Shown in pieces: positions 31,803 through 32,099 of a stretch of 64,000 nucleotides of DNA. Within the stretch, counting starts at the first letter, position 1, and the number at the start of each line of letters is the position of its first letter. The position numbers and the translations under genes are program-made. The stretch comes from Escherichia coli (GTDB lineage Bacteria; Pseudomonadota; Gammaproteobacteria; Enterobacterales; Enterobacteriaceae). Under the pieces are notes generated by a model that saw only the letters and a program-made list of their open reading frames with translations, was not told the origin of the DNA and ran no database searches. Where the stretch lies: assembly GCF_041886205.1 (NCBI RefSeq), contig NZ_CP169029.1. One strand, 5' to 3'.

Positions 31803-32099
31803 ATGCAGTTGGAAGAAGTCGCTAAAGCGCTGAAAGAGCTAGGTCACCCGACCCGTTTGTTCATATTTAAACATCTTGTCAAAGCGGGGGAACAAGGTTT
31901 GCCGGTCGGTGAGTTACAAAAGCAGCTTGGGATACCTGGCTCCACACTCAGCCACCATATCTCAGCACTGGTATCGGTAGGACTGGTCAAACAAAACCGT
32001 GAGAGTCGAACGCTGATGTGTGTTTCGCAATACGCAATGCTGGAAGCGATAATTGAATTCTTACGCGAGGAGTGCTGCGTAAATAGCAAAATTGCCTGA
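31803..32099 (+). CDS. ArsR/SmtB-family regulator, 98 aa, with C-terminal Cys-Cys pair
   Basis: Winged-helix ArsR fold (ELGHPTRLFIFKHL ... GSTLSHHISAL); lacks the CVC site of canonical ArsR; ends EECCVNSKIA; start at MQLEEV with GAGGGG Shine-Dalgarno. Confidence 0.7.
   Translation: MQLEEVAKALKELGHPTRLFIFKHLVKAGEQGLPVGELQKQLGIPGSTLSHHISALVSVGLVKQNRESRTLMCVSQYAMLEAIIEFLREECCVNSKIA

Follow-up and report, generated by a model that had tools for sequence, protein, structure and literature searches.

A probable sensor-pump pair for trivalent organoarsenicals, arsR2 and a divergent ArsP-type permease gene, beside the ars operon of Escherichia coli

SpArsR of Shewanella putrefaciens 200 was reportedly described as a methylarsenite [MAs(III)]-selective ArsR repressor by Chen, Nadar and Rosen in 2017. 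We analyzed a 64,000-nucleotide (nt) stretch of Escherichia coli DNA (contig NZ_CP169029.1, assembly GCF_041886205.1; here called the window) in which a second ArsR-type gene, arsR2, lies between the chromosomal arsRDABC operon and a divergently transcribed permease gene. We consider it likely that arsR2 and the permease gene form a sensor-pump module for trivalent organoarsenicals that is orthologous to the SpArsR-arsP pair of S. putrefaciens 200. SpArsR resembles AfArsR without Cys102, binds MAs(III) through Cys101 and Cys102, and does not respond to inorganic arsenite [As(III)] (PMC11868830, PMC13236881). AfArsR has an As(III) site of type 2, composed of Cys95, Cys96, and Cys102, and in ArArsR, cysteines of the β-sheet serve as As(III) ligands (PMC11868830). 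A 2025 biosensor paper identified the S. putrefaciens arsR gene as Sput200_1227 and arsP as Sput200_1226, with SpArsR controlling the arsP promoter. On that promoter in E. coli, SpArsR allowed 73% derepression at 1 μM monomethylarsenite [MMAs(III)] and 9% at 50 μM As(III), with no response to dimethylarsenite [DMAs(III)] or to pentavalent species. The regulator NdArsR was leakier in the same study (47% at 12.5 μM As(III)) and responded to DMAs(III). On the transport side, Campylobacter jejuni ArsP is an efflux permease for MAs(III) and trivalent roxarsone [Rox(III)] that does not transport As(III).

The arsR2 open reading frame (ORF) encodes a 98-residue protein, MQLEEVAKALKELGHPTRLFIFKHLVKAGEQGLPVGELQKQLGIPGSTLSHHISALVSVGLVKQNRESRTLMCVSQYAMLEAIIEFLREECCVNSKIA, for which the RefSeq coding sequence is WP_001175589.1, an "ArsR/SmtB family transcription factor." A GAGGGG sequence lies 7 to 12 nt upstream of the ATG, and all 32 of 32 aligned homologues share the same initial Met, so we take position 31803 as the correct start and not a longer ORF from 31740. 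ArsR2 matched Pfam HTH_20 (E = 2.4e-14) and scored 61.9 bits against NCBIfam NF033788, above the cutoff of 55. An AlphaFold2 model built with 33 homologues as input had a mean predicted local distance difference test (pLDDT) score of 94.3 and the order α1-α2-α3-α4-β1-β2-α5, with helices at residues 3 to 13, 16 to 31, 35 to 42, 46 to 58, and 77 to 90 and strands at residues 62 to 67 and 70 to 75. AfArsR (PDB 6J05) was the top PDB match both by sequence (E = 4.7e-10) and by a Foldseek search with the model (template modeling [TM] score, 0.89). The Pfam, NCBIfam, AlphaFold2, and Foldseek results all place ArsR2 in the ArsR/SmtB winged-helix fold. NCBIfam has no model specific for SpArsR-type regulators or for ArsP, the best equivalog matches for the pair (the Rv2640c family, BigR, SO_0444, and SaoE) were all far under their cutoffs, and the database names, such as "ArsR/SmtB family transcription factor" and "permease," say nothing specific about ArsR2, the permease, or the proteins most similar to them.

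We obtained the SpArsR sequence by translating the synthetic construct in the supplement of the biosensor paper, after restoring two bases that had been lost in extraction from the portable document format (PDF) file. The rebuilt protein has 105 residues with cysteines at exactly positions 83, 101, and 102, and we regard the rebuild as valid because the last two carry the published numbering. ArsR2 and SpArsR are 56% identical over 95 residues, and the alignment is gapless beyond the 10-residue N-terminal extension of SpArsR. Identity to ArsR2 was lower for NdArsR (41%), AfArsR (32%), and the operon's own R773-type ArsR (27%). The cysteines correspond position for position, with C73, C91, and C92 of the E. 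coli protein aligned to C83, C101, and C102 of SpArsR. Membership of ArsR2 in the SpArsR family, as more than a look-alike, is well supported by this alignment. The original prediction had described a second ArsR-type protein that has no Cys in the α3 helix and ends in REECCVNSKIA, next to an operon ArsR that carries ELCVCDLC, and translation of both ORFs bore this out. It had also proposed that a C-terminal two-thiol site marks ArsR variants selective for trivalent organoarsenicals, which agrees with what is published on Cys101-Cys102 of SpArsR (PMC11868830, PMC13236881). The reading of ArsR2 as an organoarsenical sensor is supported because the protein belongs to the SpArsR family by orthology and not by resemblance alone.

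The Cys91-Cys92 pair lies six residues before the C terminus, directly after α5, which ends at residue 90 in the model. Both residues, as well as C73, were invariant in 33 homologues with 62 to 88% identity. We extended the survey to 134 complete representatives of 50%-identity clusters, which were 39 to 91% identical to ArsR2, and found the CC pair in 124 of them. Given its invariance in the first set and its frequency in the second, the pair is no chance feature. An equivalent of C73 occurred together with CC in 110 representatives, 74 of which had no Cys in the tail and 36 of which had one. The pair occurred without C73 in 14 representatives, and 3 of these 14 had the AfArsR pattern of Tyr, CC, and a tail Cys. 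Residues 1 to 72 of ArsR2 contain no Cys, and the R773-type CVC...C site in α3 is absent. The tail after CC reads VNSKIA and then a stop codon, with no further Cys and no equivalent of AfArsR Cys102; ArsR2 ends at the position of the third ligand and so lacks the three-Cys site C95-C96-C102. The C-terminal Cys-Cys pair of the original prediction is therefore present and conserved as C91-C92, while its count of two thiols was wrong, since the protein has three cysteines and C73 had been overlooked.

C73 takes the position of a Tyr in β2 that is conserved in AfArsR and in the operon's ArsR, and because of this position it may simply be buried in the protein core. That it is strictly kept as Cys and goes together with CC, however, suggests a role tied to the site, and an equivalent is present in NdArsR as well as in SpArsR (C83). 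C73 could be a third ligand, possibly an intersubunit one, and as such could widen or gate the range of ligands (Sb(III), aromatic arsenicals, or As(III) at high concentration), or it could hand the arsenical on. A text search of the literature for SpArsR Cys83 or C83S returned only unrelated papers, the original SpArsR report being outside the reach of that search.

These properties of C73 raise the question of whether ArsR2 instead senses inorganic As(III) and Sb(III) at a three-sulfur site made up of C91-C92 and C73 of the same or the other subunit, which we judge to be unlikely. In the model, α5 begins four residues after C73. The α5 helices of ArsR/SmtB dimers are antiparallel, so the C terminus of one α5 lies near the start of the other. 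The invariance of C73 in the close homologues, its company with CC in the distant representatives, the β-sheet As(III) ligands of ArArsR, and the partial As(III) response of NdArsR, which has the same triad, would all fit such a site. SpArsR, however, has the same three cysteines and was reported to be unresponsive to As(III), with the low derepression at 50 μM given above, and the wing Cys therefore does not make the protein an As(III) sensor. C73 at the Tyr position may be a mere core residue, and a CVC-type As(III) sensor is already encoded 4 kb away. SpArsR carries C83 and yet shows hardly any response to As(III), so the presence of C73 alone is no refutation of a two-thiol sensor.

The intergenic region between the permease gene and arsR2 is 94 bp long and contains two imperfect palindromes of 20 to 22 nt that lie 37 bp apart (Table 1). 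No other match to ATTTC-N10-GAAAT occurs in the 64-kb window, for which chance alone would give 0.13. Site 2 is a perfect match to the family consensus and almost identical to GATATTTCTGGTATTATCGAATTAC from the region between arsP and arsR in S. putrefaciens. The arsP promoter of the biosensor construct contains ATTTCTGGAATTATGGAAAT and GATATTTCTGGTATTATCGAATTAC, where the E. coli region has ATTTCCAGAATAATCGAAAT and GATATTTCTGGTATTATCGAAATATC, and the arsRM promoter controlled by NdArsR contains ATTTCCAGTATTTTGAAAT.

We footprinted the motif across 83 loci (80 species-level loci and those collected earlier), searching the 160 nt upstream of the regulator gene and accepting no more than one mismatch among the ten fixed bases. 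The motif was found upstream of arsR2 in 73 of the 83 loci and at two or more sites in 38, with a density of 8.8/kb upstream of arsR2 versus 0.062/kb elsewhere in the same loci. Sites peaked at -50 to -41 from the arsR2 ATG, sites at the position of site 2 are conserved across genera, and the consensus is ATTTC-[T/G][A/G]N-TA[T/A]TAT-CGAAAT. The center of this consensus resembles a -10 hexamer, which in E. coli site 2 is preceded by TG to give TGGTATTAT. This may be an extended -10-like element, in which case ArsR2 would sit on its own promoter because the operator center reads as the hexamer. A consensus promoter scan of the region found only weak -35 and -10 candidates. A degenerate operator search of the window gave no further convincing site, and there is thus no sign that ArsR2 controls arsRDABC. 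The predicted wiring of regulator, operator, and permease is well supported.

The permease matched Pfam ArsP_1 (PF03773) with an E value of 1.5e-52 over residues 13 to 334, so that the domain spans the protein. The C(S/T)C motif is universal in ArsP permeases, and a "tPF" prefix such as that of the TPFCSCS motif in the E. coli protein marks ArsP cluster 2 (PMC4435449). Both cysteines of the motif were present in 55 of 55 aligned permease orthologues. The motif is also found in SO_0444 and SaoE and is therefore not specific for ArsP. The three Cys pairs of the central loop (NCCAP, SCCSP, and NCCST) belong to a variable segment whose length in orthologues ranges from 44 to 117 residues and whose Cys count ranges from 1 to 10. 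In most orthologues the segment has a CxxxC core along with repeated units like SCC..KPAP, and it may take part in binding arsenicals. A permease homologue adjoined arsR2 in 54 of the 80 species loci, mostly divergent and at times downstream, and it is the only strongly co-conserved neighbor.

From these data we propose the following mechanism. By orthology, a winged-helix dimer of ArsR2 would bind the two ATTTC-N10-GAAAT palindromes of the intergenic region and repress the permease gene as well as its own. Two sulfur ligands suffice for methylarsenite and probably for aromatic trivalent arsenicals such as reduced roxarsone; the arsenical would bind Cys91-Cys92 at the end of the dimerization helix α5, whereupon ArsR2 would leave the DNA. 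The permease would then be made and would export the organoarsenical by way of the CSC motif in the membrane. Inorganic arsenite, which requires three thiols, would be expected to induce ArsR2 poorly; it would be handled by the neighboring arsRDABC operon through the CVC-type ArsR. Every step of this scheme is predicted from the characterized relatives, the MAs(III) selectivity of ArsR2 and organoarsenical export by the permease included. The suggestion in the original prediction that ArsR2 is a dedicated sensor for the adjacent ArsP-like pump gains support from the orthology to SpArsR, the divergent PF03773 permease, and the operator motif that occurs twice between the two genes.

Several points weigh against this mechanism. 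We infer the ligand, the operator binding, and the transport activity of the E. coli proteins alike. Identity of 56% to SpArsR leaves room for a different selectivity, and the SpArsR sequence used for comparison was itself rebuilt from PDF text with two restored bases. NdArsR, at 41% identity and with an equivalent set of three cysteines, shows an appreciable response to As(III), so the family's selectivity is not absolute. A two-thiol model also leaves the invariant third cysteine, C73, unaccounted for. On the permease side, PF03773 includes Cu/Zn exporters (SO_0444) that have the CSC motif in common with ArsP, and the best NCBIfam match of the permease is SO_0444, though far below the cutoff. 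In most genera, Aeromonas, Vibrio, and Shewanella among them, the two genes occur by themselves, away from any ars genes. Because of these lone pairs, and because both the motif and the Pfam family are common to metal exporters, the neighborhood in E. coli would on its own be weak evidence.

TABLE 1 Features of the arsR2 locus and its surroundings, by position in the window
Feature	Position	Strand	Description	Basis
arsR2	31803..32099, stop included	+	98-aa SpArsR-family ArsR/SmtB repressor (predicted), ATG start	ORF and translation
Cys73 codon	32019..32021	+	Third Cys, in wing strand β2	Invariant in homologues; strand 70-75 in model
Cys91-Cys92 codons	32073..32078	+	Vicinal pair right after α5; putative MAs(III)-binding site	Alignment with AfArsR C95-C96 and SpArsR C101-C102
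Operator site 1, predicted	31720..31741, core 31722-31741	.	ATATTTCCAGAATAATCGAAAT, permease side	82% direct repeat of site 2
Operator site 2, predicted	31756..31781, core 31759-31778	.	GATATTTCTGGTATTATCGAAATATC, ~45 nt upstream of arsR2 ATG	Perfect 8-nt inverted arms
ArsP-type permease (PF03773)	30695..31696	-	333 aa from RefSeq start; ORF extendable to 31708	WP_000094387.1, "permease"
TPFCSCS motif	31478..31498	-	C(S/T)C with "tPF" prefix	Translation
Permease central loop	31118..31246	-	Cys-rich, three CC pairs	Translation
yhiS-like ORF	28893-30116	-	407 aa, intact; no NCBIfam match	
arsC, arsB, arsA, arsD, arsR	32222-36524	-	Chromosomal arsRDABC	
arsD-arsA	33992-36123	-	Part of chromosomal arsRDABC	
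arsR (operon's own)	36171-36524	-	CVC-type, ELCVCDLC	

The window is 100% identical to the E. coli chromosome NZ_AP045833. Its gene order is slp, a yhiS-like gene, the permease gene, arsR2, an element like a repetitive extragenic palindrome (REP), arsC-arsB-arsA-arsD-arsR, dinQ, gor, rlmJ, and prlC. The REP-like palindromic element (…GCCTGATGCGCTACGC…GTAGGTCGGATAAGACGCGTTAGCGTCGCATCCGACA…) at 32100-32215 fills the gap between arsR2 and arsC. The yhiS gene, intact here, is in K-12 a pseudogene split by IS5. From the lone loci of Aeromonas, Vibrio, and Shewanella, we had at an early stage taken the pair to be possibly unrelated to arsenic, a view that we dropped after the wider survey and the match to SpArsR.

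In that wider survey, ars genes lay within 6 kb of the arsR2 relative in 5 of 80 species loci, a frequency far above the approximately 0.3% per genome that, by a rough estimate, a random position would give. Of the resistance functions beside the family, only arsenic genes recurred, and they did so in at least five independent arrangements. The Citrobacter pair has the same layout as that of E. coli. In Aeromonas tecta, the pair is followed by an AfArsR-type arsR, arsD, arsA, and a glyceraldehyde-3-phosphate dehydrogenase-type gene. Two Endozoicomonas genomes have acr3 (with arsD-arsA in one) and then the permease gene and arsR2 on one strand, and the locus examined for operators (L048) has operator-like sites in the gap before the permease gene. 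In Hafnia, arsR2 overlaps arsH (402 bits; cutoff, 292), which is followed by an ArsK-like major facilitator superfamily gene, beside arsC, arsB, and arsA. The IncFIB/FII Klebsiella plasmid NZ_CP033774.1 (8955-11029) carries a 63%-identical relative at the head of a series consisting of the arsR2-type gene, arsH, a gene for an extracytoplasmic function (ECF) sigma factor, and an arsD-like gene, next to arsRDABC and a pco copper island, with a perfect operator 27 nt upstream. Each of these ars-linked loci, from Citrobacter, A. tecta, Endozoicomonas, Hafnia, and Klebsiella, has an operator-like site at the expected place. ArsH, which is encoded at two of them, oxidizes trivalent organoarsenicals.

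Other features of these loci were observed in passing. In A. tecta, the AfArsR-type regulator (…YLTEECCSGHPEQC…; positions 6369-6764 of locus L012) lies directly downstream of the SpArsR-type gene, which brings both types of C-terminal site together. The second commonest neighbor of arsR2 is a SigZ-like ECF sigma factor, encoded in 16 of the 80 loci (e.g., L005, 5485-6099, and L040, 1650-2249). In Vibrio-type loci, the gene for this factor, which has a Cys-rich C terminus (…NCCELQLD…KQCGC), overlaps the 3' end of arsR2, and on the Klebsiella plasmid NZ_CP033774.1, a 28%-identical sigma factor is encoded after arsH at 10046-10591.

These neighborhoods also bear on a second alternative, in which the two genes would serve to sense and export soft metals (Cu/Zn/Cd/Hg), much as with the Cu/Zn exporter SO_0444 of Shewanella but with an ArsR-type regulator in place of a MerR-type one. 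The best NCBIfam matches of the permease are SO_0444 (E = 2e-30) and SaoE, both with the CSC motif, its loop is rich in Cys pairs, and most of the loci have no ars genes nearby. The scores, however, are far below the cutoffs (106.1 of 300 bits for SO_0444 and 85 of 325 bits for SaoE), which leaves the permease outside the SO_0444 family. SO_0444-type pumps are paired with ZntR-like regulators and not with the ArsR2 family, ArsR2 is orthologous to a characterized MAs(III) sensor, and arsenic genes are the sole recurrent resistance neighbors, in the multiple arrangements described above. We therefore hold a soft-metal module to be very unlikely. A third alternative, that the cysteines of ArsR2 form a disulfide or polysulfide and so let it respond to redox state, persulfides, or electrophiles in the manner of BigR, SqrR, and YgaV, is more improbable still: BigR and YgaV are detectable relatives (E, ~2e-7), the C-terminal Cys of YgaV aligns with C92, and some relatives adjoin redoxin, glutathione S-transferase, MAPEG-like, or glutathione-synthase-like genes, but these thiol-related neighbors are lineage-specific (2 to 7 loci each), ArsR2 scores 38.5 bits against the NCBIfam BigR model with its cutoff of 155, and the α2 Cys of BigR and SqrR, which a persulfide sensor of this kind would need, is missing, with Lys23 in its place.

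The full pair is present in 2,221 of 5,426 complete E. coli genomes (~41%). Because arsD-arsA is present in only 255 of the 5,426, the pair usually accompanies a plain arsRBC operon. K-12 MG1655 (NC_000913.3, 3645500-3655500; slice positions 5340-5530) lacks window positions 30424-32029, with 105 unrelated bases in place of 1,606 bp and the last ~70 nt of arsR2 kept beside arsC. This junction is a deletion scar, and the pair is therefore ancestral at the ars locus. In several E. coli strains (e.g., NZ_CP037903.1, 229873-232681), IS621, an IS110-like element, is inserted within the permease-arsR2 stretch and its flanks.

A plasmid version of the pair, with 96% amino acid identity, a 107-residue regulator, and a 377-residue permease, is carried by IncX1, IncX2, and larger plasmids of E. 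coli and Salmonella (623 records at 95 to 99% identity), with several of the records listed being of chicken or pig origin. In the two plasmids that we examined (NZ_CP139185.1, IncX2, 194-1756; NZ_CP065113.1, IncX1, 5762-7324), the pair is flanked by IS1, and in one also by IS26, without other ars genes. A dinQ remnant on one of them indicates a chromosomal origin. A further ~2,200 plasmid records, mainly from Klebsiella and Enterobacter, have a relative with 60 to 80% identity. A literature search for reports of arsP, or of resistance to roxarsone, on IncX plasmids of E. coli found none; one Salmonella plasmid paper names such a pair "arsR and arsP." The plasmid-borne pair may be a mobile organoarsenical resistance module. 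A wider reading, in which C73 is a working part of the sensor beyond the two-thiol model and, separately, the arsR2-arsP pair is an unrecognized mobile determinant of organoarsenical resistance, we consider unlikely. On that reading, C73 and the permease loop with its Cys pairs would together take the module beyond a simple two-sulfur (S2) switch. The conserved wing cysteine, the permease loop with its Cys pairs, the recurring ECF sigma factor, and the plasmid spread of the pair are the loose ends of this analysis.

If the proposed function is correct, this large share of complete E. coli genomes holds a dedicated sensor and pump for methylated and aromatic trivalent arsenicals beside the classical ars operon, and several hundred E. 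coli and Salmonella plasmids carry them likewise. It could bear on the way in which E. coli of the gut and of livestock copes with methylarsenite from other microbes or with arsenical feed additives. Arsenic biosensors and ArsP assays are usually hosted in K-12, from which the pair has been lost by deletion; this loss accounts for the pair going unnoticed in E. coli and makes K-12 a clean background for such assays. The arsR2 system would also provide biosensors for MAs(III) with a chassis part native to E. coli.

Among known systems, the R773 and chromosomal E. coli ArsR proteins (type 1; Cys32-Cys34-Cys37) belong to the same superfamily as ArsR2, and the chromosomal one is its close neighbor, but at 27% identity they differ in having the ELCVCDLC site in α3, which ArsR2 lacks. 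AfArsR of Acidithiobacillus ferrooxidans has the CC pair at the same place at the end of α5 (ENCC, Cys95-Cys96); unlike ArsR2, it has Tyr at the place of C73 and a third ligand, Cys102, and it senses inorganic As(III). NdArsR of Noviherbaspirillum denitrificans HC18, which regulates arsRM and is inducible by MAs(III), has the wing Cys, the CC pair, and a promoter site like ATTTC-N10-GAAAT, whereas its target is an arsM methyltransferase gene and not a permease gene, and it is less selective. Compared by family and motif, the E. coli permease and C. jejuni ArsP (Transporter Classification [TC] 2.A.119) both belong to PF03773 and both have C(S/T)C within a membrane segment, and the E. coli protein differs in its central loop rich in Cys pairs; the family is functionally mixed, with Cu/Zn exporters among its members. 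The closest system is that of SpArsR. Both regulators have the same three cysteines with none past CC, and both genes face a divergent PF03773 permease gene. The predicted ATTTC-N10-GAAAT operator is also common to the two, and one of its sites matches nearly base for base. The annotated SpArsR is 10 residues longer at its N terminus and has the tail SGQ where E. coli has VNSKIA, its intergenic region is 222 bp compared with 94 bp in E. coli, and it is the E. coli pair that adjoins arsRDABC. This type of system is already known from Shewanella, and the E. coli pair is an unannotated member of it.

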